Below, one piece after another: positions 3,787-46,467 of a stretch of DNA of 64,000 nt. The stretch covers positions 1 through 64,000 of the forward strand of contig JBFWOZ010000009.1 in NCBI GenBank assembly GCA_050250255.1. The letters are read 5' to 3'. A model generated the notes under the pieces. It was not told the origin of the DNA. It saw nothing but the letters and a program-made list of their open reading frames with translations, and searched no databases. A program made the position numbers and the translations under genes. Numbering within the stretch: position 1 is the stretch's first letter; the number at the start of each line of letters is the position of its first letter. The DNA comes from Bdellovibrionales bacterium. GTDB lineage: Bacteria > Bdellovibrionota > Bdellovibrionia > Bdellovibrionales > DASUEL01.

Positions 3787-3904
3787 TAGTACCTCTTGTT
3801 TAAGGATGGTCTTAAGAAGTATGTACAAGCTGTTGGCGCCATGCGCAATATGCGAATAAATGGTGTTCTACATTGAAGATCGCTTAAAAAAAAGTCGCGA
3901 CTGA

Positions 3905-29128: not shown

Positions 29129-32050
29129 TTATTGAAGATCTAATTCTACGATTTTATCGTTACAAATAAAAACGGCCTGTGCGGGTGTCGTATCTGTTGC
29201 TCGTCGGAAGTTCTGCTCCTTACATCCATTTGAAACATAGATACGACTTTGCGCAGGTTTCACGAGTCCATTTTCGCCAGCCACTATAACCTCAACGGCA
29301 CCGTTGAGGTTATAGCTTGGTGCATAGGCAGCAAGTTTACCATCCACTTCGAGAGGAAAAAAGAATCCCTCATAGAGAAGTGAAGGAAGAAAACTAAAAC
29401 GGTTCGCGCTTAGCGCGTAGGTTTTTCCGGTGATTAGGTTTTTGTAAACCAGATCGTACTGTGAAAGAGCAAACACTTCTTTTTGCTGAGTTTCATACTT
29501 CGCACCAATAATTTTAAGCAAAGAATCCAACTTATTAATGGGGCTAAGCACAAAATCTTCAGATAATATGTCTGAGTTACGCGTATGAATGAAAGTGATT
29601 TTTTGCTGCCCAGGAAGAGCTGGGCCCGCAAAAGACTTTACGGATGGATTTTGAGTAAATAAATCTGGAGCCGTTAAACCTTCTAATAGACGGAACTGAC
29701 TTAGACCAATTTTGACTTCGTTTTTCTTACCTTCAATTAAATCCGTAATCTTTTGAGTGACATAATAAAAATTTTCAAAGCTACTGCCTTTTAAATACAA
29801 CACCAGATCATCAAAGGTTGTAAGCGCTAGTGTGTCCTTAGGATCTGGAATAACTCTTAATCCTTCTTCAGCAAGATAATAAATATGAAAAGTTCGTTTC
29901 TTATCAGGGTTTGGATCACGTGGCGTAGGCCTAGGCATATCTAAAGGAGGAATTTCTCCCATACCTTTAAAGAAAATACGTTCAAAACCTTTAAGAAGAA
30001 CCCATGAATATTGATCGGGGAGTGCCGTAATCTTTTGATCCAAGAGAACGTAGGATTTATCGCCAAATGCGACAAGTGGTTTTAAGAAACGATCACGGTA
30101 ATGAATTTCAGTACCGTTAAACGAATCGGTTCCACCACTACTTACAGTAAAGAAAAACACGAGATCCGCAATACCATCTCGGTTTAAATCTCTTTGCTCT
30201 ACCTTAATTAGAGTGCTTTCAAAATCACCCTCTTTAACTGATTCGCCAACGCCCAAAGTTTCTTCCGTCACGACACGGTAGACGTTCATATCTCGGCGGA
30301 GCAATCGATAAGACCATTTTCTATTTTCTAATTTCTTTACTAGAAGAAAATCTGTTGATCCGTCGATAGAACGATACTCTTCACCTTCCTGAAGCGACAC
30401 GCCTTGGATTTGGAAAACGCTGACACCTTTTTGTTCTGGCTGTAAAAGAGCCAAAGTTGGGACCATGATTTGCAATTGAAGTTTATAAGTCGAGATCACT
30501 TTCCCGTCAGATAACACGTCTAATTTTAATTGATCTTCGCCGCTTTGTGACTCATTTACTGGGTATCTGAAGAGAATTGTTTTTTGAACACCCTTTGGCC
30601 AAAGATCAATTTTCTCTGTTGAAACCTGCAGTTCCGTACCATCGCTCGTTCGTGACGCGCGGAAAGAAATATTTTTTCCGTCAAGCCATAGATTTTTTAA
30701 AAGAACCTGACCCATAACGAAAGGATTTTTACGATCCCAGAGGAGACGAATATCTTCCTGTTTCACAGGATAAATGAGAGCTTGTGGTGTTAGTTGAAAA
30801 CTTTTTTCCATGTCCAGATTACCAGACAACAGAGTTTTATTTTGCCATGTTTGGAACTGAGAAGCTCTTGGCTCACGAGCACCCAAAATAAGTCGCGCGA
30901 AGGCCTCTTGCGGCGAAATCTCTTGAGAGAGCATCATTGCGAGAGCTCCTGCTACAAACGGAGCAGCCATACTCGTACCGTTTTTATATTCATAACCGTA
31001 GCGGATATAATATTTTTTAGGTCTAATCGTAGTAGGGTAAGTGCTTAAAATACTAAAACCTGGTGCCGCAATATCCGCGAGGCTACCAAAATTTGAAAAA
31101 TGGCTAACAGCTCCATCAGGTCCATAAGAAGCGACGCAAATCACTTGAGCGTAAGCACATGGAAGAATTGGCTGATTCGCCGAATCGTTTCCAGCTGCGG
31201 AAACAATCATCACTCCATTTTTTTGAGCATAATCAAGGATCTCACGAATTGTTTTTTGGTTAGGGTCAATAATCGCAGGCCAGCCGATAGAGATGTTAAT
31301 GACCTTTGCGCCAGATCGAATGGCGTAAACAATCCCACGAGAAATAGCTGTGACAAAACCTCTTTGCTTTGAAAGCTCCGAGTCCAATGGTAATCCATCA
31401 CTCGTTTGTTCAAGAGTGCCCATGGGGCCCGTGGGAGTTTGACCCGAACCAATCACTTTTACAGGAAGAATCTTAACAAATCCCGTAGCAAGACCTTTAG
31501 TCACACCACCGGCACCAGATGCAGAAATAATCCCGGCGATGTGAGTGCCGTGACCCGCTTGATCTTGAACGTTAAAACTACCACGAGTTCCATCACCTTC
31601 TTTTGCTGTAAAATTAAATCCATTACAATCAAGAGGGTAACCATTCTTATCAGTGTCAACTACACCCGTTGTTTTTTCACATTGGATGATCTTTGGTTTA
31701 TCTAATTTTGCCTCTTTTAAACAAGCAAGATGAGCTTTTAACGCCTCACACTCAGTAGGTTTAGTGGCGATGTAAGGAGCCAATTCTGGATGATCTACTT
31801 GCACACCCGTATCGACAACAGCAACAATAATTTCCTTCTTTGGAGTGGCCGGAAGATTTCGTAAACGAAGATCTTCGCCCACCACCGCCGGGAATTCAAT
31901 GGTTTTTAAATCTTCTAAATCCACAGGTACAGAAGCACCTTGATTATTGAAGTACCACAGAGAGTCAGGTCCATTTGCATTTACGATGCTGATTCCACTT
32001 AGAATCACAATTAGGGAGGCCAGGAGAATTTTGATTTTTACATGTTTCAT
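29129..32050 (-). CDS. Secreted subtilisin-like S8 protease with long C-terminal extension
   Basis: VAVVDTG, GHGTHIAG, AAGND, GTSMAAP; signal peptide. Confidence 0.92.
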   Translation of the reverse strand: MKHVKIKILLASLIVILSGISIVNANGPDSLWYFNNQGASVPVDLEDLKTIEFPAVVGEDLRLRNLPATPKKEIIVAVVDTGVQVDHPELAPYIATKPTECEALKAHLACLKEAKLDKPKIIQCEKTTGVVDTDKNGYPLDCNGFNFTAKEGDGTRGSFNVQDQAGHGTHIAGIISASGAGGVTKGLATGFVKILPVKVIGSGQTPTGPMGTLEQTSDGLPLDSELSKQRGFVTAISRGIVYAIRSGAKVINISIGWPAIIDPNQKTIREILDYAQKNGVMIVSAAGNDSANQPILPCAYAQVICVASYGPDGAVSHFSNFGSLADIAAPGFSILSTYPTTIRPKKYYIRYGYEYKNGTSMAAPFVAGALAMMLSQEISPQEAFARLILGAREPRASQFQTWQNKTLLSGNLDMEKSFQLTPQALIYPVKQEDIRLLWDRKNPFVMGQVLLKNLWLDGKNISFRASRTSDGTELQVSTEKIDLWPKGVQKTILFRYPVNESQSGEDQLKLDVLSDGKVISTYKLQLQIMVPTLALLQPEQKGVSVFQIQGVSLQEGEEYRSIDGSTDFLLVKKLENRKWSYRLLRRDMNVYRVVTEETLGVGESVKEGDFESTLIKVEQRDLNRDGIADLVFFFTVSSGGTDSFNGTEIHYRDRFLKPLVAFGDKSYVLLDQKITALPDQYSWVLLKGFERIFFKGMGEIPPLDMPRPTPRDPNPDKKRTFHIYYLAEEGLRVIPDPKDTLALTTFDDLVLYLKGSSFENFYYVTQKITDLIEGKKNEVKIGLSQFRLLEGLTAPDLFTQNPSVKSFAGPALPGQQKITFIHTRNSDILSEDFVLSPINKLDSLLKIIGAKYETQQKEVFALSQYDLVYKNLITGKTYALSANRFSFLPSLLYEGFFFPLEVDGKLAAYAPSYNLNGAVEVIVAGENGLVKPAQSRIYVSNGCKEQNFRRATDTTPAQAVFICNDKIVELDLQ

Positions 32051-32059
32051 AATTACTCC

Positions 32060-35000
32060 TTAAAATCCATCGCCTAAATAACGACCAAATAACTCGTAAG
32101 CGAGAATTTTATATTTTTTGACAAATTGTCCAAAGATCCCTTGTTCCAGTTCCGTGCTGTAGGTTCCTAAAGAATCAGAGAAGTACTCTTGTCCGCCTTC
32201 TAAATTCATGCGCTCATCATTTTTTCTAAAACCATTCACTCGAACCTGAAAGAAATAATTCTCATAACCTAAAATTTTTAGCACTTCGTAGAGTGGAAGC
32301 TGGCCTTGCAAAAGATCAACGATTTGATTTTGGATCTTAATAATATCTTTTTTCTCCACAGGAGGCGCATTCCTAAACTCAAGGAGTCTCTGCATCCAAG
32401 GGAGAAGGCAAGGGTACTGCTGTTCAGCATTGATACTCGCCAAAAAACTTCTGTAGGCTGGATTCGCTAACGTGAATACCTTTGCGTTCTTACATTGCGT
32501 TTCATAAGCATGTCGACCGCCGATTTCAATCAACCGAGACACGACTTGCGCCTCTTGTCCTCTTTGACCCGCCTTTAAAAACTCTCTGCGAATTTTTTCC
32601 AAGCCCGACGGATAAACAACTAACTGAGACTTGATTTCATAAAGCTGAAAATCCGTTACTTCGTTAAAAACTTCTTTTCTCATGAAAGGATGCCCAAGGT
32701 TGAGGCCCGATACACTTCTTTCAATAGAATCAATAATTTTATAAAAGTCTTTTTTCTTTAAGTTCCAACCGGTCCAGTAGTTTTCGCTAATGGTGACGGG
32801 GTGAAAACTTTGACCGTCTGTCACTTCCGCTTCTGTAGAAATCGTCGACCACTTGGCTTTACCTGCAACAGATGTAAGATTATTTCCACCGACTCCTCCT
32901 GGCCCAAACCCTGGGGCCGCAGCATTCACGATGTCGGAGAGAAGAGAGTAATAATTAACACCGCTTCGGCGTACTTTTCTGACAGAGAAAAGATGCGCAT
33001 CGTATTTTTCTTCTGTGACGTTTTCTTGTTCGCTTTTAGGTGCTCCATCTAAGGGACGAAATTTTAAAGAAACCGTATGTGCTTCATCGAGAGTATCTTT
33101 CTTTAAAAAGAGAAAGGAGAAACGACTCGACCTTGAAGAGTAATCGTGACCTAATCGGTAGGGAAGGTAGTTACTCTCTAAAAGTTCTGGGCTATTTCCG
33201 CGAATAAGACCTCTTAACGCTAAACCAATTTTCACATTTCGCTTGTAACCTTCAGAATCGAATTTTCCTGTTGGTTTTTCATCCCCTTCTTTAAAGTCGA
33301 TGATGTAGGCACGAGTTTTAGCCACTGCTTTTTTCGGACTGCTTGCGAAGTTTATAATATCAATCCAGAATGAAAGACCAAAATCATGGCTTACGGCACC
33401 AGAAGCAGCGTCTGTAAGATAGATGTGAAAACCGTCGGCCGTACGAGTGATATAGGTCTTTCGAAGCATAATGAGGTTTCCAGATACCCCATAACGAGCT
33501 ACAAATTCTTGTCCGAGCATGACTGGGATACCCAAAATAGCTGAGATGGGAATTGCAGCCGAGGCTCCGGCACCACCGCCGATAGAGTCAGTAACTATGA
33601 AAGTTTCTCCCACTTTCATAGCTTTCGCGAAAGCATCAAAAGACTTTTCGTATTCTTCATCTTTTAAGTCCGCTTTAATCAAATCGCCAAGCCCCAACAT
33701 AAAATTCAAAACATGAATGTCGTCGCGCGGTTCATTTTCCACCGCAGCTAAACTCGGAAGCGCTCGAACGTGAGCGAAGTCCCGCCGATAAAATACGTTC
33801 GCTGAAGCGGTAGGGAGAACATTTTCTTGAGATGTGTTTGTTAAAAAATAACCAAGAGACGCCTGGACAGCTAAAGAGTCGACGAGTTGAATCTTTGAAT
33901 CCACACCATAATAAGTTCCAGAAGAAACGGAACGACCAGCTTGGATGCTTGCACCCGCCAGCATCCCGCCCCAGGTATCTAACGGAAAACTGCCTGGAGC
34001 TTCAGGATTTTCGATGTAGCGTTGAATGAACTCTTCAATATCTTTACCCCGACCAGCCGTGATGTCTTCGATCGTTTTCGCCGGAAATTTCTTTGTAATC
34101 GCCTCGAGAACTTTTGAAAGCCCAATACCTTGAGCCTCAAGTCTCATAAATTTCGCAATTTCACCAAGACGAATAGGCGACTCTACATCACCAAAGGTAA
34201 AACGCACGCTGATTCCAGGATAAAATTCTTGGGTCGCTTTACCATTCACTACTTTACCGACGTTCACTTGTGTTTCAAATGGCATTTGCGGAAACTCTGC
34301 TCCAAGTCCTGCTAAATGAATGAGATGGTTACGTCTTGAAATAAGTTTTTCAAGAAAAAGAGCGGCAATATCTGATGGATAGGCACCAGCCGTTACGATT
34401 TCTTCAAAATCTTTGCGAGTGAGTTTTGCAATTTTTCGAGCGACCCAACGAATGTCTTGGTAATCCGTATCTGTAAATTCATTGGCGAATACCTGGTTCA
34501 TGACAAGAAGGTTATTCACGACCTTACCCATTTCCCAACCAAACATATTCACGTTTTCTGGCATATCCGCCAAAACAAAGAGAGTAATCAAAGCTCGTGT
34601 AGAGCGCTTGCTACCTACGAAACTTTTCTGCGCAACGCCCCAATGAAATTGCGGAACGGTGAGATCAGCAGGCTCCAAGATGACATCTTGCAAAGTAACT
34701 TCTGAGTTTTCAGTATTTTTGCGATCGGTCTCAGGAATCCAGCGTAGACCGTCACTGAGTGTATCTGCAGAAAGTTTGTTAATGAACCGTTGGCGACATT
34801 CTTCTTTCGTTGTGCCACAGAAATTCTTTTCTAATTTTACCTTAAGAAGCGGGTAGTGTTTAATTGCGCTTGTGTTGTAGCCCACTTTTCTCATGAGAGC
34901 ACTGCGCACTAAAGCGCCATGTCCCTGAGGGCTTACCCAAAGGATGAAGTTTCGTCCCTGACTATCGATGACCGTCATGCGCGAAACGCTCAGAAGGTCT

Positions 35001-35323
35001 CCGACCTTCACCGCACCTAAACTAGAATCGTACTCGACCTCAGATTTTTCTGGAAAAGATATTGCGACACGCTTAGGGTCTGTTGGCCAAAGGTTGTTAG
35101 GCTCAGGATCGAGTTGGCTAAGATCTACTTTGTTTTTTAAAAGTTCTGCTGCTTGATCTGAATCAATCGTTTTTCCTTGGTACTGAAGATCATTAGCGGG
35201 GCGCTTTGCGCGGTTGACGGGGATTGCGACCGAAGCAGCAAACACCCAATTTGGCAACGCAAGGATTAAAAACACTCCTGCAAGAAAACGAGTCAAAAAT
35301 TTATTCGTCGAATTCTTCGCCAT
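32060..35323 (-). CDS. Large secreted protein, catalytically degenerate paralogue of the 1..3786 kinase-fold protein
   Basis: Signal peptide; DLSQLDP..LW, DIRWVAR..YP..LISRRNHL and MKVGETFI..IGGGAG blocks match the 1..3786 ORF. Confidence 0.8.
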   Translation of the reverse strand: MAKNSTNKFLTRFLAGVFLILALPNWVFAASVAIPVNRAKRPANDLQYQGKTIDSDQAAELLKNKVDLSQLDPEPNNLWPTDPKRVAISFPEKSEVEYDSSLGAVKVGDLLSVSRMTVIDSQGRNFILWVSPQGHGALVRSALMRKVGYNTSAIKHYPLLKVKLEKNFCGTTKEECRQRFINKLSADTLSDGLRWIPETDRKNTENSEVTLQDVILEPADLTVPQFHWGVAQKSFVGSKRSTRALITLFVLADMPENVNMFGWEMGKVVNNLLVMNQVFANEFTDTDYQDIRWVARKIAKLTRKDFEEIVTAGAYPSDIAALFLEKLISRRNHLIHLAGLGAEFPQMPFETQVNVGKVVNGKATQEFYPGISVRFTFGDVESPIRLGEIAKFMRLEAQGIGLSKVLEAITKKFPAKTIEDITAGRGKDIEEFIQRYIENPEAPGSFPLDTWGGMLAGASIQAGRSVSSGTYYGVDSKIQLVDSLAVQASLGYFLTNTSQENVLPTASANVFYRRDFAHVRALPSLAAVENEPRDDIHVLNFMLGLGDLIKADLKDEEYEKSFDAFAKAMKVGETFIVTDSIGGGAGASAAIPISAILGIPVMLGQEFVARYGVSGNLIMLRKTYITRTADGFHIYLTDAASGAVSHDFGLSFWIDIINFASSPKKAVAKTRAYIIDFKEGDEKPTGKFDSEGYKRNVKIGLALRGLIRGNSPELLESNYLPYRLGHDYSSRSSRFSFLFLKKDTLDEAHTVSLKFRPLDGAPKSEQENVTEEKYDAHLFSVRKVRRSGVNYYSLLSDIVNAAAPGFGPGGVGGNNLTSVAGKAKWSTISTEAEVTDGQSFHPVTISENYWTGWNLKKKDFYKIIDSIERSVSGLNLGHPFMRKEVFNEVTDFQLYEIKSQLVVYPSGLEKIRREFLKAGQRGQEAQVVSRLIEIGGRHAYETQCKNAKVFTLANPAYRSFLASINAEQQYPCLLPWMQRLLEFRNAPPVEKKDIIKIQNQIVDLLQGQLPLYEVLKILGYENYFFQVRVNGFRKNDERMNLEGGQEYFSDSLGTYSTELEQGIFGQFVKKYKILAYELFGRYLGDGF

Positions 35324-35452: not shown

Positions 35453-35484
35453 AAAAAAAGAAAAGGCCTCTAGAAGAGACCTTT
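35453..35484 (-). terminator. Rho-independent terminator after lipoprotein A
   Basis: Minus strand aaaggtctc-ttcta-gaggccttt followed by a U tract. Confidence 0.75.
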
Positions 35485-35510
35485 CAAAAGTGTTTAATAT
35501 TTAAACAATA

Positions 35511-36530
35511 TTAGTTCATAAGGCTGCCGTAAAAGAAGCCGAGAACTTCTCTCATTGTCTCTGGACTTGTTCTCCAGTTTTGAGCAGCTTCACCAACAAG
35601 GGAATCCATCTCCTTCAAAGCAAGCTCCGTCTTTCCATCACGAGCCATGAGGGCTACGTCTTCAATACGACCGAGCTCAATTCCATAAACACGCTTAGAA
35701 AAAGCAGCCATGTCAGCATGCGTACGAGCGCGCTTAGAACCGATCTCTGACCAATCAACGAGTGAAGCAGCAGCTTGTTCGCTGACATCTGCATCTAAAG
35801 AGAACTTTGCCTGAAGAACTTCAGAGATACCCTTTACTTGATCGGCACGTTGTTCAGCAATTGTGCCCATGACATCTTGACCTTGTTGTCCACCCGTAGC
35901 GCGAGCAAGGTTTAGTGCTGTTCCATTATAACCATATTCAACGCCAGAAGGGCTACGCATGAACATATCATTAAGCGTATTTACATTTCCTGGCTGCGTT
36001 GTTCTCCATCCGAAATTCCACCCACCTAATTGATTCTCGTAAAACGTTTTTGAAAGATGCCAATCTCTAACATTAATTTCTCGTCCATCTGGCGTTTTCA
36101 CATAATGTTCGTAATTCGTAAATGTTTCGATGTATTCATGAACACGTTCCACAAAACCACCCTCACAAACGCTTTGCACAACTCTCGCGCAAGGATCCCA
36201 TTCATTTTGGATCTCAGTCTTTAATCTTGTGTCCTGAAAGGTTTTAAAACTAAAAGAAAAACCATTTAATTTAGAATAATGAGGATCTGTTTGAAGGTTG
36301 ATTTTAGAACCGTCGTATTTAAAGTTACAACCCGGTCGAGGTTCACCCTCGCTACAGATCTGCGCCATAGAGTTAAACCAAGCATTTTTATTCACATCGG
36401 GATTGTTACGAAGCACATCAAATGGATCTACTTTTGGAGCTGAACCGCCACCGCTGCCTCCTCCTCCGTTACAAGCTGACATTATTAATGCCAAGACGAA
36501 AACTAAAGTGCAATTAAAAACAAACTTCAT
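35511..36530 (-). CDS. Tandem variable lipoprotein, copy A
   Basis: Lipobox MSAC, poly-Gly tether, CSEGEPRPGC, invariant C-terminal block. Confidence 0.9.
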   Translation of the reverse strand: MKFVFNCTLVFVLALIMSACNGGGGSGGGSAPKVDPFDVLRNNPDVNKNAWFNSMAQICSEGEPRPGCNFKYDGSKINLQTDPHYSKLNGFSFSFKTFQDTRLKTEIQNEWDPCARVVQSVCEGGFVERVHEYIETFTNYEHYVKTPDGREINVRDWHLSKTFYENQLGGWNFGWRTTQPGNVNTLNDMFMRSPSGVEYGYNGTALNLARATGGQQGQDVMGTIAEQRADQVKGISEVLQAKFSLDADVSEQAAASLVDWSEIGSKRARTHADMAAFSKRVYGIELGRIEDVALMARDGKTELALKEMDSLVGEAAQNWRTSPETMREVLGFFYGSLMN

Positions 36531-36559
36531 TTATTACCCCCTAAAACAAGGTCTATGAG

Positions 36560-36576
36560 TTGCCCTACCTATGCCA
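36560..36576 (-). promoter_or_regulatory. Putative sigma54 (-24/-12) promoter of copy A
   Basis: TGGCATAGGTAGGGCAA, GG-N10-GC spacing. Confidence 0.55.
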
Positions 36577-36679
36577 CTGGATACTACTTAATGAGAAGGA
36601 AAATCGTCGGTCCACCGTACGGTTCTGTGTACAGGTGACGTACACATCTGCGCGAACAAAGCTAAGAAAGAGTAAAGGT

Positions 36680-36708
36680 TGATCACAAGCAATATACGCT
36701 TGTGATCA
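36680..36708. promoter_or_regulatory. 11-7-11 palindrome (candidate operator/UAS, or terminator of copy B)
   Basis: tgatcacaagc-aatatac-gcttgtgatca; same geometry as 47469-47497. Confidence 0.55.
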
Positions 36709-36735
36709 GAAGATTTTGCAATGCTAAATAATTTT

Positions 36736-37689
36736 TTATTGGGCCAGATTGCCGTAGAAGTAGTTTAGAACTTCTCTCATGGTCTCAGGACTTGTTCTCC
36801 AGTTTTGAGCAGCCTCACCAACAAGGGAGTCCATTTCTTTTAAAGCAAGTTCTGTTTTTCCGTCACGAGCAAGAAGAGCCACATCTTCTATGCGACCGAG
36901 CTCAATTCCATAAACACGCTTAGAAAAAGCAGCCATGTCGGCGTGCGTACGGGCGCGCTTAGAACCAATTTCAGACCAATCCACTAAAGAAGCGGCCGCT
37001 TGTTCACTGACATCTGCATCTAAAGAAAACTTCGCTTGAAGGACTTCAGAGATGCCTTTCACTTGATCGGCACGAACCTCAGCAATTGTACCCATGACGT
37101 CTTGACCTTGCTGACCACCGGCTGTGCGAGCTGCATTGATCGCAACACCGTCATAACCGTACTTCATACCAGATGGGCTTGTGATAGTTACATCACTCAC
37201 ATCAAAATGTACGCCGGTTGTTCTCCCAGCAAAAATCCAGCCGCCCAACTCTTTAGCGAAGTTTTGTTGTTGGTATCGAGTCCAATCTGCCATTGTATAA
37301 CGACCACCGCCAGGAATATGAACGAAGTAACGATAGTTTGTATAGGTTTCGCTGGTGTCTGTACAGTAACCATCGAAATCACAGCTTTCATTCCAACGTG
37401 TGGCTGTGTAAGGTTCGCGTTCAATTAAAAATCCACCATTGAGCCGGTCAATGAAAGGGTCTTCGCCTTTTGTAACCTTTGAACCATCATATTTAAAATT
37501 ACAACCTGGACGAGGTTCACCTTCGCTACAGATTTGTGCCATGGAGTTATACCAAGCATTTTTATTTACATCGGGACTATTACGGATCGTCGAAAAATAG
37601 TCTGGCGTTGAGCCTCCGCCACCACCATTACAAGCGGTCATTGCAAAAGCTGTTGCCGTCATTAAACTTATTCTTAGAAGTGTTTTCAT
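36736..37689 (-). CDS. Tandem variable lipoprotein, copy B
   Basis: Lipobox MTAC, GAGG RBS, same architecture as copy A. Confidence 0.9.
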   Translation of the reverse strand: MKTLLRISLMTATAFAMTACNGGGGGSTPDYFSTIRNSPDVNKNAWYNSMAQICSEGEPRPGCNFKYDGSKVTKGEDPFIDRLNGGFLIEREPYTATRWNESCDFDGYCTDTSETYTNYRYFVHIPGGGRYTMADWTRYQQQNFAKELGGWIFAGRTTGVHFDVSDVTITSPSGMKYGYDGVAINAARTAGGQQGQDVMGTIAEVRADQVKGISEVLQAKFSLDADVSEQAAASLVDWSEIGSKRARTHADMAAFSKRVYGIELGRIEDVALLARDGKTELALKEMDSLVGEAAQNWRTSPETMREVLNYFYGNLAQ

Positions 37690-37709
37690 ATTTCCTCTTT
37701 GTTTTAGGC

Positions 37710-37737
37710 AAAAAAAGAGCCTCTAAAAGAGGCTCTT
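37710..37737 (-). terminator. Rho-independent terminator between copies C and B
   Basis: aagagcctc-tttta-gaggctctt followed by a U tract on the minus strand. Confidence 0.8.
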
Positions 37738-37746
37738 GGTGTTTCG

Positions 37747-38763
37747 TTATTGCATTACGTTTCCATAAAAGAAGTTTAAAACTTCTCTCATCGTCTCTGG
37801 ACTTGTTCTCCAGTTTTGAGCGGCTTCACCAACGAGGGAATCCATCTCTTTAAGAGCGAGTTCCATCTTTCCATCACGAGCCATGAGAGCTACGTCTTCA
37901 ATACGTCCTAATTCAATTCCATAAACACGCTTAGAAAACGCGGCCATATCGGCGTGCGTACGAGCGCGCTTAGAACCAATCTCTGACCAATCAACGAGTG
38001 AAGCAGCCGCTTGTTCGCTCACATCTGCATCTAAAGAGAACTTCGCTTGCAGAACTTCAGAGATACCTTTTACTTGGTCTGCACGCTGTTCAGCGATAGA
38101 ACCCATGACGTCTTTACCTGTTGTTCCACCTGCTACTTGAGCGGCGTTTAAAGCATTTCCTGCGTAAGAGTACTTCACGCCAGTAGGGCTGAGGATTGCG
38201 ATATCATTGATATCTCCACTTGAACGATGTTCGAACGACCATCCATTCAATTTATCAGCATAAAAGCGAGAGTTAAGACCCCAATCTTTTACATTATAAA
38301 TACGATTGTCAGGAGTGTTCACATAAACCATGTAGTTTGTGAAAGTTTCTACATCTGTGTAATACTCTGTATCGTAGCCACCTACACAGTAACCATCCCA
38401 ATCAACATAATCACAGGAATCCCAAACTTGTCGAGAACGTTGAACCGTTTTTGAATCTGTATAAGCAACACGCGAGAATGTGAAACCATCTAACTTAGAA
38501 TAGTGTGGATCTGCCTGTAGAGTGATTCTTGAACCATCATAACGGAAGTTACAACCTGGACGAGGTTCACCTTCGCTACAGATTTGCGCCATAGAGTTAA
38601 ACCATGCGTTTTTATTCACATCTGGATTGTTACGAAGTGCATCGAATGGATCCACTTTTGGAGGTGTACTTCCTCCGCCACCGCCGCCTTCACAAGCGAC
38701 TGCGAGCATTGCTAGAGCAACGAACGAACTGACTCTTAAAACTTTTGAAAAACCGGACTTCAT
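37747..38763 (-). CDS. Tandem variable lipoprotein, copy C
   Basis: Lipobox AVAC, same architecture as copy A. Confidence 0.9.
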   Translation of the reverse strand: MKSGFSKVLRVSSFVALAMLAVACEGGGGGGSTPPKVDPFDALRNNPDVNKNAWFNSMAQICSEGEPRPGCNFRYDGSRITLQADPHYSKLDGFTFSRVAYTDSKTVQRSRQVWDSCDYVDWDGYCVGGYDTEYYTDVETFTNYMVYVNTPDNRIYNVKDWGLNSRFYADKLNGWSFEHRSSGDINDIAILSPTGVKYSYAGNALNAAQVAGGTTGKDVMGSIAEQRADQVKGISEVLQAKFSLDADVSEQAAASLVDWSEIGSKRARTHADMAAFSKRVYGIELGRIEDVALMARDGKMELALKEMDSLVGEAAQNWRTSPETMREVLNFFYGNVMQ

Positions 38764-38809
38764 TTCATTCCCCCTTATAGGATTTATTTTTAGTTCCGTA
38801 GGCCCCTAG

Positions 38810-38825
38810 AGCAACCTACGTGCCA
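38810..38825 (-). promoter_or_regulatory. Sigma54 (-24/-12) promoter of copy C
   Basis: TGGCACGTAGGTTGCT matches the consensus TGGCACG-N4-TTGCW. Confidence 0.8.
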
Positions 38826-38951
38826 TATCACTTTTTTTGTTTACTTGTTTAATGTGAGTTAAAGCTTTCTTTTCGGTGACAATTAGATACCAGAGCTCTA
38901 ACGCATCGCTCTATGTCACCAGTTACAAAAGCTTGATCAGACTCACTAGCT

Positions 38952-38986
38952 AAAAAAAAAGCCTGAGAATTTCTCAGGCTTTTTTT
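38952..38986. terminator. Bidirectional intrinsic terminator after copy D
   Basis: A9-gcctgagaa-t-ttctcaggc-T7. Confidence 0.85.
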
Positions 38987-39006
38987 GTAAGTTGTGTTTA
39001 CTATTT

Positions 39007-40008
39007 TTACTTCGCAAGATTCCCGTAAAAGAAGTTTAGAACTTCTCTCATGGTCTCAGGACTTGTTCTCCAGTTTTGAGCAGCTTCACCAACAAGTGAA
39101 TCCATCTCTTTCAAAGCAAGCTCTGTTTTTCCATCACGAGCAAGAAGAGCGACGTCTTCGATACGTCCTAATTCAATTCCATAAACACGCTTAGAAAAAG
39201 CAGCCATGTCAGCATGCGTACGAGCGCGCTTAGAACCGATCTCTGACCAATCAACGAGTGAAGCAGCAGCTTGTTCGCTGACATCTGCATCTAAAGAGAA
39301 CTTTGCCTGAAGAACTTCAGAGATACCCTTTACTTGATCGGCACGTTGTTCAGCAACCGTGCCCATGACGTCTTTACCATTAGTGCTACCAACCGCTTGA
39401 GCTGCGTTGAGAGCAGAACCGTCGTAGGCATACTTCACGCCAGATGGGCTCAAAATAGTAATATCGTTCACATCAGTGAACGATCCCGCCAAACGATGTT
39501 GGAAACTCCAGCCGTTGAGTGAGTAGCTTCCGCTCACAAGACCCCAGTCCTTTACGTTGAATTGTCTTCCGTCTGGAGTGTTCACAAACACATTATAATT
39601 CGTGAAGGTTTCTGTGTAAGCATATTCACGTCTCACGTAACCAGCCTGGCAAACGCCGTCTATGTCACGATATGCACAATGATCCCATTCTTCAGTTTCG
39701 CCAACACGGTAACGCTTATCGGTGAATGACGAACGTACGAATGTAAAGCCATTCAAAGTTGTATAAGCAGGATCTTCACCTAAAGAGATTTTTGATCCGT
39801 CATATTTAAAGTTACAGCCAGGACGCGCTGGTTCACCTTCGCTACACATCTGCGCCATAGAATTGTAAAATGCAGTTTTGTTTGCATCTGGATTATTTCG
39901 GAGAGCTGCAAAATAATCAGGAGTGGAACTACCGCCACCACCGCCGTTACAAGCTGTCATCACAAACGCTAACATGAGAAACAAAGAACAATTAAAAACA
40001 GATTTCAT
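39007..40008 (-). CDS. Tandem variable lipoprotein, copy D
   Basis: Lipobox MTAC, same architecture as copy A. Confidence 0.9.
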   Translation of the reverse strand: MKSVFNCSLFLMLAFVMTACNGGGGGSSTPDYFAALRNNPDANKTAFYNSMAQMCSEGEPARPGCNFKYDGSKISLGEDPAYTTLNGFTFVRSSFTDKRYRVGETEEWDHCAYRDIDGVCQAGYVRREYAYTETFTNYNVFVNTPDGRQFNVKDWGLVSGSYSLNGWSFQHRLAGSFTDVNDITILSPSGVKYAYDGSALNAAQAVGSTNGKDVMGTVAEQRADQVKGISEVLQAKFSLDADVSEQAAASLVDWSEIGSKRARTHADMAAFSKRVYGIELGRIEDVALLARDGKTELALKEMDSLVGEAAQNWRTSPETMREVLNFFYGNLAK

Positions 40009-40041: not shown

Positions 40042-40059
40042 TTGCCAAGCTTATGCCAG
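40042..40059 (-). promoter_or_regulatory. Putative sigma54 promoter of copy D
   Basis: CTGGCATAAGCTTGGCAA, GG-N10-GC spacing. Confidence 0.6.
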
Positions 40060-40086: not shown

Positions 40087-41448
40087 TTAGGGAATGCGCT
40101 GCATTATCTTCGAGATCTGTTCATCCTGCTGTTCAGTGAGGATTTTAAACGTGAGTTCATTTAAAACGGTCTTCCAGACATTATGAAACTCCTGCAGGTG
40201 TTTGGGATTTACGGCCTGATACACGCGTTCATCTTTAAGAATTAAAACCGTGAGCTGCGCTAGGCGATCTAAAAGACTTATTTCTTTTGTAAATTGGACT
40301 TTGTCACCAAAGGAGAGACGAAGTTCCGATATGGCCGGTACAAGTAACTCAAGAGAAGGAGTTTTGTCTTGTTTATCCTCAGAAATGACCAAAAATTGAT
40401 CTATCACGCAGCTGGAACAAGACCCCAGGATTCTCAGCAAAGAAAGAATATTCGGAGTCGAAAGGCCTTCTACGGAGCGAATGAGGATTTGACGAGCTCC
40501 ACTGGCTTTCACGATGCGACCAAGTTCTAGTTGGGTACTCATGAGTTTTTCAAGATCTGTCACGCGCGCTATAACATAAGCGTTTTGTTCCTCGCTTGAA
40601 GAAATTGCGGTGCTACTACCACTTCCATATATATCTTGAGACGGTTTTGGCCACTGTATGCGACCATTATGAGGGTTACCTGCGATGAGCTCATCTGGTT
40701 TTGTCGCTTTACCATTATGCGGATTACCAGCGATTTGGGTCACAGCTTTTTGATCAGCCATCGAAATGGTTAAACCAGAAAAATGGAAAGTGTTGGTCGC
40801 ACGATCATAGCTATAAGAACGGGTAGGCATACCTTTACGTGCATTCTCAATAAAACGAAGAATGGTTGAAGCAGGAATAGAAAGAGCCGTACCTTCTTTG
40901 GATTTTTGAGAAACCATTCCTACGACTTTATCTCCAGCAAGAACGACAGAACCACTCAATGAACCACGAAGGGGTAATTCTACTCCTTGAACATTCTGAA
41001 TTTCCTGGGCTCGGGGAACGCCGGGCACCATTAATTTCCCGCTGGCAAGATCCATGAATCGCCCCGCGATAGTTGTTAATCCTTTAGATTGAAAATCCCA
41101 ACCCATGATGGAAACAAGTTGCATCTGTTTTAAAGGCGTCAGGGTTTCAAAAGAACAGGCCGAAAAATTCGCGTTTGGCACTTCAAGAAGAGCCAAATCC
41201 GTATGAAAATCACGCGCCATAATTTGGGCAGAAAGCTGAGAAACTTTTTCCTTTTCTACAACAAGACGAGTGGGCTGGAGCGGCAAAGTGTGTTCATTAA
41301 CAACTAACTCCGTTGCAGAAATCGCAAAGGCTGTTCCGGAATACTTTATTCCGTCCTCCTCAGAGGTGACTCGCGCGAGAGTACAAGGAGCGTTCGCCAG
41401 CAAGGGTTGAGCGACGCTGAAAAGTAAAAAACTCATAAGCATTTTCAT
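40087..41448 (-). CDS. Secreted trypsin-like (S1) serine protease with C-terminal extension
   Basis: SGTAF, VNEH, TDLALL, GSLSGS..VVGM; signal peptide. Confidence 0.75.
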   Translation of the reverse strand: MKMLMSFLLFSVAQPLLANAPCTLARVTSEEDGIKYSGTAFAISATELVVNEHTLPLQPTRLVVEKEKVSQLSAQIMARDFHTDLALLEVPNANFSACSFETLTPLKQMQLVSIMGWDFQSKGLTTIAGRFMDLASGKLMVPGVPRAQEIQNVQGVELPLRGSLSGSVVLAGDKVVGMVSQKSKEGTALSIPASTILRFIENARKGMPTRSYSYDRATNTFHFSGLTISMADQKAVTQIAGNPHNGKATKPDELIAGNPHNGRIQWPKPSQDIYGSGSSTAISSSEEQNAYVIARVTDLEKLMSTQLELGRIVKASGARQILIRSVEGLSTPNILSLLRILGSCSSCVIDQFLVISEDKQDKTPSLELLVPAISELRLSFGDKVQFTKEISLLDRLAQLTVLILKDERVYQAVNPKHLQEFHNVWKTVLNELTFKILTEQQDEQISKIMQRIP

Positions 41449-41449
41449 T

Positions 41450-43741
41450 TTAAGCTCCTTTATTCACAACGTAACCGGCGCTACGACCAGCCCCGATAGG
41501 GGAGAGAAGACGCATTTCTACAAGCAAAGTTAATTCACGAACCGCGGTTCGTGGGCTTAGACCTAAATTTCTCACTACGTCCTGACGACGAAGAATTCGC
41601 TGAGGTCCAGAAACAAGCGAAAGTATATCTCTTTGTCTTTTGGTTAATGGTTCGGTATCTGTCCAAGCATTTCGAATCTTTGCTTTTTGCAAAGGCGACA
41701 CACGATATTTTCCTATATGTAATTCAATCATCACCGACTTACGAAGTCGTCGAATGTGGCTATAGATAATAGGATCATCTTGAAAAGGGCTGTATTCCCG
41801 ACCCCATATCAATTGGATAAGTTGTTCTTTAGAAAGACCACTCAGCCCACTCTCAACTAAATGTTTTAAGATTAAAAATAAAATGGATTGGCTTTTGATA
41901 TCAAGCTTCGTTCCTTTTAGAAGAACGACCCCATCCATTTCATCAACAAGTAAACCTTCAGAATATTCCTGCTCATTTTTTGAAAGCTTTGAACGTTTTA
42001 AAATCCAATGAGTCGAAGTGAGATCTTCTCCAAAACAAAGCGTAAAAAAAGCGGATAAATCTTCTTTAACGGAAGGAGAGCATTTGTTCATTGTGTGAAG
42101 CCATTCCACTTCGTGATGTGAGTCTTGATAGACGAGTCCTCCACGCGCAAGACACGCCAGAAGCATGAGCCCTTGAGCTTGAGCCACCATTAAGGCCTCA
42201 TTAAAACATCTCATCATTTTTTCGCGATCTCCCATTGAGAACGCATAAAAACCACGACCTAAACTCTTTAAACATTCTGACCATGGTGAAGAAGGAAAAG
42301 ACTCCATTTTTTGAAGAATGGCGTGTACCACTGACCAATTTTTCTGTGCTACCGCAGAAATCATTTGCACTTCAAGAATAGAAAGTTTGTCTGCCGGCAC
42401 ATGAGGAGACGAGACAAAATCCATCCACTCACTAAGACCAATTCTTTTTTGTAGAACAATAGGGACCCGTGCGACGAGATCTGAAACATCGGTTTTTAAT
42501 TGGCCCATGGAACGGGCCTGAAAAGCCACTCGTCGTAATTTCCAGGCGAGTAAGTAAAGTGACGACTGAGCATCTGCTCTTGGGTCCTGAACATTTTCTT
42601 TACCCGCATATTCCATACCTTGTAAACCAAAGCCGGCTTCAAAAATTTCTAAAGCAGTCTGGGCTTGAGAAAATTGAGTGAAACCCTTCTCTGCAATATG
42701 TCTGCGCGACATACCTAGGGAAATTTGCGCTTGAAACACTTGTCCCAACTCTAAGTGCGCTTGACCTTGAGCTTGTCGAGCGAGCACTTTTTGCACTTCG
42801 CTTAAGTTTTGGAAGGTAAATACTTCTTCTGTTTTTGCTAAAGCACGGAGTGGCTGATTTTGTACGATTTCTCTTTGCGCTTCAAAAAGCGAAAGACTTT
42901 TTGAAAGGCAGGGAAGTTGAAAGGTCTTGAGTTTTTGATTCACCATCTTGAGCCAAAATTGTACGTCTTTTTCTTGATCTAAAACATGGTGAGTCGCCGC
43001 GAGATTAAAAGCGGCAATCGCACTGGAAGCTGTTTCTTCTTCTAAATCGAAAATCTCAAAAGCTTGTCGATAAAGTGCAAGGGCTTTTGAATAATGAGCT
43101 AAATTAAAGTAGGGGGAACCGCAAATTAAAAGAATTTGACCACGATCCCAAGAAGACAACTGAGAGATGTTTTGAAGAATATAACTTCTTTCAATCAATT
43201 CAACCGCTTGTTCTTGGTCACCTGTAATCCGCAAATTGAGAATTTCAGCCGCTAAAATCTTAGGATCGGTCTTTGCATTCATGACCTGTCGAAGACTCTC
43301 GCAGTCACGTTTTAAATAAAGTTGTGCTTGAAATGTGGCGAGCGATTTTAACTCTTTAAACTTGAGAACTAATTCCCATTGGTTGGACTCGAGAGCTCGT
43401 TTCACGATCCATTCCTTCAATACCAACGGAACCTGATTAGAGCCGAGTTGCTGATCCATCAGTTGTCCTACGAAACTCCACTCTTTTTCTCCAAACCCAG
43501 AAAAGGATTCTTGTACCGCTTGCAGACATTCGATGAGTCTTCTTTGAAGCGAAATTTCAAACTTCTTTTCTTCTGATATTGAGAGTCTGCCAAACTGATT
43601 TTCCTGACTCATGTTAAACAAAAGCCAGTCGGACATTTCTTTTTGCAGTTCCACTCCAAAAAGCAAGTTGGCACCTACGCCTCCATATTTGTGGAGGCAG
43701 TAGAGAAATTCTTTTTTCTGGTGCGCCAATTTGAGGCTCAT
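41450..43741 (-). CDS. TPR + OmpR-type winged HTH + C-terminal HTH transcriptional regulator
   Basis: TPR-like helices (YSKALALYRQAF, AAFNLA); LSKEQLIQLIWG..IYSHIRRLRK; LTKRQRDIL..LGLSPRTAVRELTLLV..GAGRSAGY. Confidence 0.75.
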   Translation of the reverse strand: MSLKLAHQKKEFLYCLHKYGGVGANLLFGVELQKEMSDWLLFNMSQENQFGRLSISEEKKFEISLQRRLIECLQAVQESFSGFGEKEWSFVGQLMDQQLGSNQVPLVLKEWIVKRALESNQWELVLKFKELKSLATFQAQLYLKRDCESLRQVMNAKTDPKILAAEILNLRITGDQEQAVELIERSYILQNISQLSSWDRGQILLICGSPYFNLAHYSKALALYRQAFEIFDLEEETASSAIAAFNLAATHHVLDQEKDVQFWLKMVNQKLKTFQLPCLSKSLSLFEAQREIVQNQPLRALAKTEEVFTFQNLSEVQKVLARQAQGQAHLELGQVFQAQISLGMSRRHIAEKGFTQFSQAQTALEIFEAGFGLQGMEYAGKENVQDPRADAQSSLYLLAWKLRRVAFQARSMGQLKTDVSDLVARVPIVLQKRIGLSEWMDFVSSPHVPADKLSILEVQMISAVAQKNWSVVHAILQKMESFPSSPWSECLKSLGRGFYAFSMGDREKMMRCFNEALMVAQAQGLMLLACLARGGLVYQDSHHEVEWLHTMNKCSPSVKEDLSAFFTLCFGEDLTSTHWILKRSKLSKNEQEYSEGLLVDEMDGVVLLKGTKLDIKSQSILFLILKHLVESGLSGLSKEQLIQLIWGREYSPFQDDPIIYSHIRRLRKSVMIELHIGKYRVSPLQKAKIRNAWTDTEPLTKRQRDILSLVSGPQRILRRQDVVRNLGLSPRTAVRELTLLVEMRLLSPIGAGRSAGYVVNKGA

Positions 43742-43754
43742 GAATTAAAATACC

Positions 43755-45101
43755 TTATGGTTTTTTCACAGGGACAATTGAAGTTGCTGGCTTCGCTGTA
43801 GGTTTTGAGCTTTCGGGAGCAGACTTGGTTTCAGGTGTGTAACGTAGGCCTTCCTCAAACTGCACGCCTGTAAGGTCATTTAAAGAACCCACTCCCATCA
43901 AAAGTAATTTTACTTTTGTTTGGACGTTGTTTTCAGTGTCTTTCCCAGCATTAATGAGAGAGTACAGCTCATTCTGCCAAGCTTGAGAGTTCCAATCATT
44001 CGCAAAGGCCTGAACTTCCTTAGCCACTGACGCATCTCCACCAGCGCGACCTTTTACCGCTGCTTTCAAAGCCATCGCTTTAAAACGAAGTTGTGTATAA
44101 ATCGTGCGGTTCATATTGGAATCCAATGCGTCTTTATTGATAAGAAGCTCCCTCAGCGTGGTCTCCAGTACAACACCAATCGCCGACATCGCTTTCGAAG
44201 GGGCTCCTGCAAGTCCATTCGTCCATCCATAGCTCATGCGTAGTTGGCTCACAAGTTCACGAATATTTTCAATAATGAGTTGAGTCGTAGCAACATCATC
44301 ATATTCACTAAAAATTTCTTCCATCACTGTACCCATGGCCACAACCATACGGGCGGACTCTTGAACGTTTTGGTGTGTTACAGGCACCGTGATGACTTCC
44401 TTTTGTAAAACAAATGCATCCATCGCAGATTGGATAGAAGCCTTAAGTCGATCCATGTGTGGTCGGTCGGAACGTCTTAAGGAACCAGTCAGTTGGTTGA
44501 GTTGATTGAGCGTGTTCTGATAGATCGTATAAAGGCCTTGACCGGCATGACTTAGCCCAAGCGCGAGACTCTTGGGACTACCAAGAAACGCGAGGGAAAC
44601 AATAGAAAGGTATGGATTTCCATTCCTCGATAGCGTCTCCTGACAATCATATGCAAACTTTGTTACCGGTTTTTCAAATTCAAACTTGGCAGGGCCAATC
44701 GCATTCCAATGTACTACTGGAAAAGTATTAAGATCTACACTAAACGTATCTGGGCGACTTTGCCTGTAAGATCGCACCAATACAGCCGTGATTGGTAAAG
44801 TAGATTCCACGCACACACAAGTTGCTAGAGCGGCTTGACGAACAGCGGTGGAACTCGTCCCGGCCAAACCAATAGGAGCCGAATAAGTTAAGTCTCCTTT
44901 CACTACAGCATTACCAGTAATTTTAACCACACCAATACCAAAATTAATTATGCATTGTTTTTTTCCTTCACACGCACTGACAACATCGAGAACGATTTCG
45001 CCTTCTGGACTGTGAACAATCCTCTCAACTTTGCCTAGTTGTGCTTGTGAAAAAATTGGTAGCATTGAAAAAATAAATGTAAGTAGAGAAAAAATCTTCA
45101 T
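43755..45101 (-). CDS. Secreted protein E (variable N-terminal domain, conserved helical C-terminal domain)
   Basis: Signal peptide; paralogue of 45112..46407. Confidence 0.85.
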   Translation of the reverse strand: MKIFSLLTFIFSMLPIFSQAQLGKVERIVHSPEGEIVLDVVSACEGKKQCIINFGIGVVKITGNAVVKGDLTYSAPIGLAGTSSTAVRQAALATCVCVESTLPITAVLVRSYRQSRPDTFSVDLNTFPVVHWNAIGPAKFEFEKPVTKFAYDCQETLSRNGNPYLSIVSLAFLGSPKSLALGLSHAGQGLYTIYQNTLNQLNQLTGSLRRSDRPHMDRLKASIQSAMDAFVLQKEVITVPVTHQNVQESARMVVAMGTVMEEIFSEYDDVATTQLIIENIRELVSQLRMSYGWTNGLAGAPSKAMSAIGVVLETTLRELLINKDALDSNMNRTIYTQLRFKAMALKAAVKGRAGGDASVAKEVQAFANDWNSQAWQNELYSLINAGKDTENNVQTKVKLLLMGVGSLNDLTGVQFEEGLRYTPETKSAPESSKPTAKPATSIVPVKKP

Positions 45102-45111
45102 AAATAGTCCT

Positions 45112-46407
45112 TTATAGTTTTTTTACGGGGACAAGAGGGGTTACAGGTTTTGTTTCAGGTGTGTAGCGGAGGCCTTCTTCGAACTGTACGCCCGTGAGAT
45201 CATTGAGCGAAGCTACAGCCATTAAAAGTAACTTCACTTTTGTTTGAATGTTGTTTTCAGTGTCTTTACCAGCATTAATTAAGGTGTGCAGTTCGTTCTG
45301 CCACGCCTGTGAATTCCAATCCGCAGCAAACGCTTGTACTTCTTTAGATGCCGAAGCATCTCCGCCTGCACGACCTCTGACTGCCGCTTTCAGCGCCATC
45401 GCCTTAAAGCGAAGTTGAGTATAGATGACACGATTCACATTCGAGTCTGTTGCATCTTTAACCATGAGAGTCTCTCGAAGAACAGTTTCTAATACCACAC
45501 TAATTGCCGCCATTGCTTTTGATGGAGCACCCACCAAACCATTTGTCCAACCAAAACTCACTCGCAATTGATTCACTAGTTCGCGAATATTCGTTATGAT
45601 TTGTTGTGTACTCTCTATATCGTCATATTCATTAAAAATTTCTTCCATCACTGTACCCATAGCGACAGTCATGCGTGCTGATTCTAAAATATTTTGATGA
45701 GTTACAGGAACCGTTGGCACATTATTCTGCATCACAAAAGCATCCATTGCAGACTGAATCGAACTTTTCAAGCGATCCATATGAGGACGATCTGAACGCT
45801 TTAAAGAACCTGTGAGTTGATTAAGATCGACAAGAGCTTGTTCATAAACGGCAAAAAGTGATGTACTCGACGACGTAAGCGCATGAGATAAGTACTTTGG
45901 GTTATTAGAAGCGAATGCGATTGAAACAATAGAAACGCCACTTTTAACCAGACCACAATCGAATTTAAATTGTTTCACCGGAGATGGGAAATAAAACTCT
46001 GGCGAAGCATTTTCGACATAATTTGTTAAAACAGACAAATTTGAGTTGTAGGTCGTTGGAAGTGCTCCTATAGATCGAATTAAAATTCCAATAATCGGTA
46101 TATCTGAGATGACTGTTGGGCAATATGGAACTGACACATCAGAGGGTGTGCCGGCCCAACCAAGTGGAGAACGCCAAAAACCTCCAGTTGTAGTAGTACC
46201 AGTCCGACCTGTCTGTAAAAAACCGGTTATTGTTATAGAACCCTGCTCTGTTTTTATGTTGCATATTCTCTGATTTGCACAAGCTGTCGTTATGTCTATA
46301 ACGCGATAACCTTTGTTGTTGATCTTTCCTACTACCACAGATGTTTGAGCTGTCGATAAACTAGGCAGAACTGAAAATAGAATAATTATGACGAAACCAA
46401 ATCGCAT
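45112..46407 (-). CDS. Secreted protein F, paralogue of E
   Basis: GAGGAG then ATG 46407; signal peptide MRFGFVIIILFSVLPSLSTA. Confidence 0.85.
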   Translation of the reverse strand: MRFGFVIIILFSVLPSLSTAQTSVVVGKINNKGYRVIDITTACANQRICNIKTEQGSITITGFLQTGRTGTTTTGGFWRSPLGWAGTPSDVSVPYCPTVISDIPIIGILIRSIGALPTTYNSNLSVLTNYVENASPEFYFPSPVKQFKFDCGLVKSGVSIVSIAFASNNPKYLSHALTSSSTSLFAVYEQALVDLNQLTGSLKRSDRPHMDRLKSSIQSAMDAFVMQNNVPTVPVTHQNILESARMTVAMGTVMEEIFNEYDDIESTQQIITNIRELVNQLRVSFGWTNGLVGAPSKAMAAISVVLETVLRETLMVKDATDSNVNRVIYTQLRFKAMALKAAVRGRAGGDASASKEVQAFAADWNSQAWQNELHTLINAGKDTENNIQTKVKLLLMAVASLNDLTGVQFEEGLRYTPETKPVTPLVPVKKL

Positions 46408-46450
46408 ACAAAACTCCTCAAAAACATTTTCGTGGCGCGATTCTGTAGTA

Positions 46451-46467
46451 ACCAATAATCGTGCCAG
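46451..46467 (-). promoter_or_regulatory. Possible sigma54 promoter of the F-E-regulator-protease operon
   Basis: CTGGCACGATTATTGGT: perfect -24 box, -12 is TTGG instead of TTGC. Confidence 0.5.

Follow-up and report, generated by a model that had tools for sequence, protein, structure and literature searches.

The type 9 secretion system (T9SS) handles diverse cargos that share a conserved terminal domain and includes a protease in its machinery; its C-terminal domain is beta-sandwich-like and the machine is made of many subunits. In the dentilisin of Treponema denticola (PrcB-PrcA-PrtP), the genes for lipoproteins accompany that of a subtilase active at the outer membrane. For the type 11 secretion system (T11SS; Slam/DUF560), the available text of PMC12282271 describes cargos (TbpB, LbpB, fHbp) that combine variable N-terminal effector domains with a shared C-terminal domain and are encoded near a dedicated outer-membrane barrel. 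For Bdellovibrio bacteriovorus, a repertoire of variable tips on mosaic adhesive trimer (MAT) fibres has been proposed to serve prey recognition (PMC13689555, available text). The locus analysed here lies in a stretch of 64,000 nt from a Bdellovibrionales bacterium (contig JBFWOZ010000009.1, positions 1 to 64,000; hereafter the window) and contains four tandem lipoprotein genes, A to D (35511..40008), followed by two downstream genes. An earlier note, made from the letters of the window, had described the array as a constant framework carrying a hypervariable loop. Comparison with related genomes indicates what that description missed, namely that the C-terminal tail of the four proteins (hereafter CTD) is found across the phylum at the end of unrelated cargos, and that it goes together with the two downstream genes. 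By the same comparison, the array supplies the lipoprotein component of a conserved three-part module, whose other members are a 1087-aa pseudokinase/barrel-like protein and a subtilase. The placement of the host within Bdellovibrionota is supported by its homologs.

The modular nature of the CTD became apparent from 147 distinct proteins of 150-600 aa collected from the fetched loci. The domain lay no more than 15 residues from the C-terminus in all 147, and 140 displayed a lipobox pattern; four more had a visible variant of it and the other three were fragments. No CTD was found in open reading frames (ORFs) of at least 600 aa in these loci. When the N-terminal parts were classified by motif, 26 proteins fell into a window/CxnPGC class, 31 into a class typified by Bd2427 of B. 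bacteriovorus HD100, 43 into a type 2 class with a helix-plus-sheet N-part, 10 into a class of GYxDG repeats, six into a metzincin-motif class and three into a TGG low-complexity class, while 28 stayed unclassified. The hhalign comparison joined only the window set, the window/CxnPGC class and the Bd2427-type class (prob 96-99%), all other pairs reaching at most 1.3%; the CTD is thus carried by at least five mutually unrelated classes of lipoprotein N-termini. Domains with HExxHxxGxxH characterise the metzincin class, whose M10/M12 Pfam matches are weak and below the cut-off. Cys-tipped or Tyr-rich hairpins recur in other N-terminal classes (L105, L107, L055), and the distant homologs of the array proteins are 230-330 aa long and devoid of the long insert. 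Twenty tandem pairs of CTD genes were seen, and two genomes contain 8-9 CTD genes, many of them away from the module. At the level of sequence, this distribution is what a sorting or docking domain would show.

The gene neighbourhood is conserved as well. Distant lipoprotein homologs adjoin homologs of the 1087-aa and 973-aa genes of the window, and a CTD lipoprotein was present within the fetched DNA at 42 of the 65 named barrel loci. At barrel loci of at least 15 kb, both the lipoprotein and the S8 protease were found in 32 of 40. Of 128 full-length barrel genes, 112 were directly followed by the S8 gene; many of the other cases were cut by sequence ends (these were not individually checked). 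Profile searches of 201 genomes of the phylum matched the CTD in 82 and the barrel in 94, reduced to 89 after five genomes with only a short kinase-lobe match were dropped (G216, G081, G117, G164, G203). The CTD and a full barrel occurred together in 80 genomes, the CTD alone in two, the barrel alone in nine and neither in 110; at a looser threshold, a CTD lipoprotein with a weak match appeared close to the barrel gene in six of the nine barrel-only genomes. The homolog searches for the CTD and the barrel were crowded by Bdellovibrio or limited in candidates, and these figures describe the range within the phylum only. The earlier note had proposed such a search to gauge array size and loop diversity; the constant domain proved widespread, up to the 8-9 genes per genome mentioned above, and most family members do not have the long hairpin.

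Several variants of the family were observed along the way. Four lipoproteins (L110, L111, L116, L118, from G142 and G126) contain HExxHxxGxxH and end in the CTD, some of them in tandem pairs away from the module. In seven others (L106, L108, L109, L121, L124, L138, L141), a long GYxDG repeat matching Pfam Yae1_N, likely a helical stalk judging from its sequence, precedes the CTD. Minimal proteins of 188-189 aa (L055, 13422-13988; L079, 13323-13892) have an N-part that consists of a Tyr-rich segment between two Cys.

Within the window, all four genes lie on the minus strand: A (35511..36530, 339 aa), B (36736..37689, 317 aa), C (37747..38763, 338 aa) and D (39007..40008, 333 aa), with B located 57 nt behind C. 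Each product starts with a signal peptide, a lipobox Cys and a Gly tether, followed by the motif NSMAQ.CSEGEP(A)RPGCNF.YDGS, in which the extra residue (A) is present in D only. The ORFs and alignments agree with the order that had been proposed, from lipobox, tether and shared motif through a variable core to a C-terminal block. This block (RADQVKG..MREVL; 35541-35849 in A, 37777-38085 in C, 39037-39345 in D) is 103 aa long and does vary at just two columns, 295 (M/L) and 301 (T/M) in the numbering of A. The reported spacing of the Cys pairs was also recovered: 114-122 in A (x7), 103-109 in B (x5), 117-126 in C (x8) and 111-120 in D (x8). These pairs belong to a hairpin, predicted at ~36111-36263 in A, ~37333-37434 in B, where it is the shortest of the four, ~38332-38487 in C, the copy that was modelled, and ~39595-39750 in D. 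Mutual identity among the four proteins amounted to 68-89% in the N-terminal base, 30-65% in the lower hairpin, 14-37% in the upper hairpin, 37-65% in the second base and 95-97% in the helical tail. The view that the most divergent part is a loop rich in W, Y and D holds for the upper hairpin (W 4, Y 10, D 11 and E 12%, vs 2, 4, 7 and 6% in the whole proteins), although the region after the hairpin is strongly divergent too.

The constancy of the block goes beyond what recent duplication would leave, because the proportion of synonymous differences among copies (pS) is 0.20-0.56 and that of nonsynonymous differences (pN) 0.008-0.025. On this sequence evidence, the near-identical tail in this genome (G000) is the product of purifying selection. 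Gene conversion between tandem copies probably helped to keep the tails alike, since the first 173 nt of the constant block of A are identical to a run in D. That identity makes a mis-pairing of tails by the assembler possible, but the contigs of sequencing run X1, which may be the source of the assembly, carry four distinct N-terminal parts and no other letters there. The genome is 99% complete in 95 contigs, and a tblastn search of it found no copies beyond A-D. The X1 contig over copy A (window 35831-36791) has a depth of 5.75, compared with ~11 on its flanks and 8-18 for the others; this could be noise or could mean that some members of the population have lost copy A, and no joint was listed.

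The structure of copy C was predicted with AlphaFold from residue 33 onwards, using an alignment of 118 rows of which only eight contain the long insert. The model (mean pLDDT 90, pTM 0.58) combines a small beta-rich base with a hairpin; the two hairpin strands (residues 95-120 and 126-149) are each 24-26 residues long, and C117 and C126 stand on either side of the turn. The CTD, a separate unit of six helices (219-337), is joined on by a linker of low confidence (~207-216). The placement of the two Cys at the turn suggests a disulfide. The prediction is consistent with the earlier proposal of a disulfide-tipped hairpin on a constant scaffold, and the variable segment is exposed rather than buried in the monomer model. 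The family is as unrecognised as first stated: Pfam and NCBIfam gave no family match, Foldseek (PDB and viral sets) and VIA-align gave no solved or viral fold (best Z 4.9), and all scores of an Atlas search were under 0.8. The PDB sequence matches 7bqq and 7bqs, which we take to be designed proteins, were dismissed as helical alignments of merely 43-47 columns. The C-x7-C spacing is also the motif of the Bowman-Birk inhibitor loop, and such a loop was ruled out because spacing and sequence vary.

Ongoing diversification of the loop, as implied by the word hypervariable, did not find support. At the tip of the upper hairpin, pN (0.37-0.55) is no higher than pS (0.46-0.83), and the two values are close to saturation. 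A blastn-short search of the four hairpins against the genome, aimed at templates or silent cassettes, returned only self matches and matches of at most 20 nt. No reverse transcriptase or recombinase was present among the six flanking ORFs to which that scan was limited. No hairpin variants appeared in two further runs of the same study (X2 and X3; depth 2-3, partial cover), so that diversification between strains was not seen at this low depth, and two metagenome scans contained no locus related to the array. Among eight matches, just three were close relatives. Among the proteins of another organism, the hairpin of C has a counterpart in P0002 (51%) and that of D in P0003 (54%), and because these types pair across organisms the loops predate G000. 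P0002 and P0003 come from contigs of equal length and may therefore be encoded by neighbouring genes. A single clade of A-D is rejected by the tree of N-parts (p-AU 0.025), and so is a clade of P0002 with P0003 (0.03). Pairing across genomes is not rejected by the tail tree (p-AU 0.28-0.34), so that concerted evolution of the tails is at most suggested. The residues W..C and C..G[YF] around the tip are retained in six of seven related proteins. From these comparisons, the hairpins appear as an old repertoire of four members, paralog-specific variants older than this genome, and not as a demonstrated hypermutating set.

Directly downstream of the array, the window encodes a 1087-aa exported protein homologous to Bd2429 (32060..35323, minus strand) and a 973-aa subtilase homologous to Bd2428 with a long C-terminal extension (29129..32050, minus strand). 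The latter scores 131.7 bits against the Pfam S8 family (cut-off 21.8) and contains the D, H and S motifs; the strict three-motif pattern was found in 87 of 118 homologs, the non-matches being uninspected. The 1087-aa protein (model pLDDT 80, pTM 0.76) consists of an atypical-kinase-like domain (~46-352) followed by 14 long predicted strands. The stranded part matches CymA (Z 12.3, rmsd 6.1, 241 aligned), EspP (Z 11.3) and autotransporters (Z 10-11), and, by its resemblance to outer-membrane barrels, is a candidate barrel. The kinase-like part matches Fam20C (Z 8.0, rmsd 4.4) and PI4KIIa (Z 7.7). The motifs of active atypical kinases (beta-3 lysine, catalytic D..N loop, DFG-like) are absent from the protein, which has R, T or I at column 127, H at column 135, a loop D-x-P-E-S-x-N and no DFG-like Asp; the domain is predicted to be a dead kinase. 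Short kinase-lobe matches were noted in frames of 550-1380 aa in many relatives. At the edge of the window (1-3828, minus strand), an ORF of at least 1276 aa runs off the contig start; hhalign matches it over 563 columns (prob 96.6%) to the 1087-aa protein, of which it is a paralog. It keeps the kinase-like catalytic motifs and has no Pfam match, and its product is possibly, on sequence grounds, an exported kinase-barrel fusion.

A homologous three-gene module is Bd2427-Bd2428-Bd2429 of B. bacteriovorus HD100 (UniProt Q6MKG6, Q6MKG5 and Q6MKG4). The barrel and protease of locus L103 cluster at 90% with HD100 Q6MKG4/CAE80243 (Bd2429) and with CAE80242, whose 1033 aa equal the length given for Bd2428, and a Bd2427 peptide (PMC11003981, supplement) was found in the L103 lipoprotein and in P0221. 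The N-domain of the window proteins is homologous to the Bd2427 type (hhalign prob 96.5%, E 8e-10, 33 columns). In Bdellovibrio a single lipoprotein copy without the long Cys-tipped hairpin lies downstream of the protease, in contrast to the four copies of the window. Bd2427 and Bd2429 are annotated as uncharacterised, and the main texts searched mention only Bd2428. In the accessible parts of the published data, all three proteins were detected in the predatory proteome (PMC12546842, supplement rows). Bd2428 is named in the data on empty bdelloplasts (PMC11003981, section 9), for which two overlapping N-domain peptides of Bd2427 were also recorded in a preparation that includes proteins of broken predators. 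Further, Bd2428 was found in culture supernatant (PMC3898049), was up-regulated at 30 min (PMC2797640) and was among the predation mutants of Tudor et al. 2008, the last as cited in PMC2797640.

Promoter-like signals are distributed unevenly over the array. Sigma-54-like -24/-12 motifs lie upstream of D (40044..40058), C (38811..38825) and A (36562..36576), all on the minus strand, and B has no promoter-like motif of its own. These are all three matches in the window to a pattern that was composed after the sites had been seen; 1.2 were expected in 64 kb, and 10 of 100 shuffles reached three. The pattern precedes 11 of 85 other CTD genes, against 0.24 expected, and sigma-54 is encoded in the genome. 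The whole genome (3.09 Mb) contains 84 matches as a raw count. A scan for sigma-70 promoters stayed at chance level (8 vs 7.3). Terminator-like hairpins were identified after C (37715..37737, minus strand) and A (35461..35485, minus strand), a terminator-like inverted repeat after D (38944..38996) and an 11-bp stem-loop, read directly from the sequence, after B (36680..36708). Immediately upstream of the array (40087-43741, minus strand), the window encodes a 763-aa TPR/winged-helix regulator and a trypsin-like protein in which the motif IAGNPHNG is repeated, genes that are absent beside the module in the relatives compared. Beyond them is a second tandem pair of genes for exported proteins of 448 and 447 aa (43755-45101 and 45112-46455, minus strand), whose C-terminal halves resemble each other (over 300 nt, the DNA is 77% identical) and whose N-terminal halves diverge, with no Pfam or NCBIfam match above cut-off.

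Since the CTD ends unrelated proteins, nearly always in genomes that contain the predicted barrel and the protease, it is likely a tag for reaching the cell surface by a route not described before. The fuller reading, in which the barrel and the protease serve the CTD as a tag for export or docking and the hairpins are surface binding probes, is tentatively favoured, with a chance that approaches even. It starts from what was observed: four tandem genes with a near-constant tail, the occurrence of that tail at the end of otherwise unrelated lipoproteins, the gene neighbourhood and the co-occurrence. To these we add, by inference, surface exposure, contact between tail and barrel, cleavage of the linker before the tail and a ligand. 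The lipoprotein would first be lipidated and transferred to the outer membrane, where the barrel-protease pair would recognise the constant helical CTD. Cleavage might follow at the flexible linker before the CTD, in line with the low-confidence linker that immediately precedes it in the model of copy C. Each copy would finally be displayed at the surface with a different disulfide-tipped hairpin as a binding probe, and the four genes would represent an expanded cargo set of a module of the Bd2427-Bd2429 type. A bolder form of the proposal, that Bdellovibrionota possess their own lipoprotein secretion system, in which a pseudokinase-fused outer-membrane barrel (Bd2429) together with a coupled subtilase (Bd2428) exports lipoproteins bearing an alpha-helical C-terminal signal and here displays an antibody-like set of four disulfide-tipped stalks that samples prey or surfaces, is possible but doubtful.

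A number of observations weigh against the tag reading. Most Bdellovibrio carry one cargo gene, a thin use for an export machine, and the N-part of their lipoprotein is 71-90% conserved, similar to the barrel (67-88%) and S8 (67-82%). Of the 20 tandem pairs elsewhere, only 13 have a CTD that is more similar between the two copies than the N-part is. The genomes in which the genes co-occur are kin and not independent, and hence no statistical test was applied. Fold matches of the barrel are generic (rmsd 5-9), Foldseek giving none at E <= 0.001, and the inter-protein coupling between barrel and CTD (5.6 vs 6.1 +/- 0.16 permuted; 100 pairs, low power) did not exceed chance. Bd2427 peaks at 3 h and Bd2428 and Bd2429 at 1-2 h (PMC12546842, supplement rows). 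In a pooled transposon-sequencing (Tn-seq) experiment, EP01_RS08225/30/35, matched to Bd2427/8/9 by gene order beside a rhomboid gene, had fitness values of 1.1-1.9 and no predation defect, genes with defects scoring near 0 in the same table (PMC6561027). A complex prediction with barrel residues 215-1087 and the CTD returned 'no answer' (score 0.00) and is no evidence either way.

The conservation of the CTD, which in single-copy Bdellovibrio reaches 80-96% and exceeds that of every other part of the module, would also fit a self-assembly domain through which the copies co-polymerise into rings or a patchy envelope lattice, nucleated or matured by the barrel and the protease. This reading is close to the scaffold idea of the earlier note; a near-invariant tail among co-encoded copies suits hetero-assembly, and the signal of Bd2427 is above those of Bd2428 and Bd2429 at 3 h (PMC12546842, supplement rows). 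It is nevertheless rather unlikely, as the CTDs of tandem pairs in other genomes may share just 29-66% and Bd2427 (5.4-7.2) is far under the major outer-membrane protein Bd0427 (~10.4) in the same rows, in values that are relative intensities and not copy numbers. An arrangement comparable to SusD/RagB on SusC/RagA, in which the lipoprotein is a stable but exchangeable subunit of a feeding machine that captures substrates for the subtilase to cut and the barrel to import, is unlikely. Four copies would widen the substrate range, the linkage of the three genes is fixed, Bd2428 and Bd2429 rise during growth inside prey and some cargos contain metzincin motifs (Pfam matches below cut-off), but a plug or TonB-box architecture did not turn up in the barrel protein, whose N-terminal domain is kinase-like, some N-termini are just Gly/Thr repeats or a 30-residue Cys hairpin and would make unlikely lids, and the timing of Bd2427 differs from that of its two partners. 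That the hairpins are decoys or drifting loops without specific ligands (for example masking against phages), with tails kept constant by gene conversion alone, agrees with a tip pN/pS near 1 for A/D (0.45/0.46), with the 173-nt A/D identity and with the absence of the long hairpin from most family members, but is improbable given the retained tip residues, the persistence of the loop types in another organism, the rejection of A-D as a single clade, the promoter-like motifs kept by three copies and a tail pN far under pS.

Under the tag reading, one parallel is T11SS, with which the locus shares variable N-parts, a common C-terminal domain and a nearby gene for an outer-membrane barrel, predicted in this case. 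The cargo domain of T11SS is an eight-stranded barrel, whereas the CTD modelled here consists of six helices (pLDDT ~88-98); the 1087-aa protein and its L103 homolog have no DUF560/Slam match in Pfam or NCBIfam, and the partner has a kinase-like domain at its N-terminus and a subtilase alongside it. T9SS differs in that no Por secretion sorting domain was matched in the same databases, the CTD model is helical and the cargos are N-terminally lipidated. As regards dentilisin, the match to NF033595 is confined to the S8 core and reaches 64 bits (cut-off 300), and there were no PrcA or PrcB matches. MATs are trimeric and phage-fibre-like; the proteins of the array are lipoproteins of 317-339 aa that match no viral or solved fold, and no MAT-type fibre fold or S74 chaperone was matched in Pfam for the array proteins or listed in the fold searches. 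A literature search, with subscription journals largely outside it, found neither the CTD and the module nor Bd2427 and Bd2429 described; the genes are not mentioned in the accessible parts of PMC12034629, PMC7174725 and PMC13689555, and a term search of the main text of PMC11656739, whose supplements with lineage-specific families lay outside it, had no occurrence of them. The array belongs to an undescribed family in an undescribed conserved module. Among the cases seen, the window array is the most extreme in combining a constant tail with a variable probe; it amounts to a natural series of loop swaps and might serve as a display scaffold. The module, present in the genetically tractable HD100 (bd2427-bd2429) and in ~40% of the 201 sampled Bdellovibrionota genomes, provides a three-gene candidate for how predators place lipoproteins and prey-binding proteins on their surface. 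In the searches run, neither the fold of the tag nor the fusion of pseudokinase and barrel matched any described family, and export, if confirmed, would constitute a new type of secretion. Its working principle of a terminal tag, a dedicated barrel and a protease is already known from type 9 and type 11 secretion, and the module is thus analogous to such C-terminal-signal systems while being a member of none of those tested.

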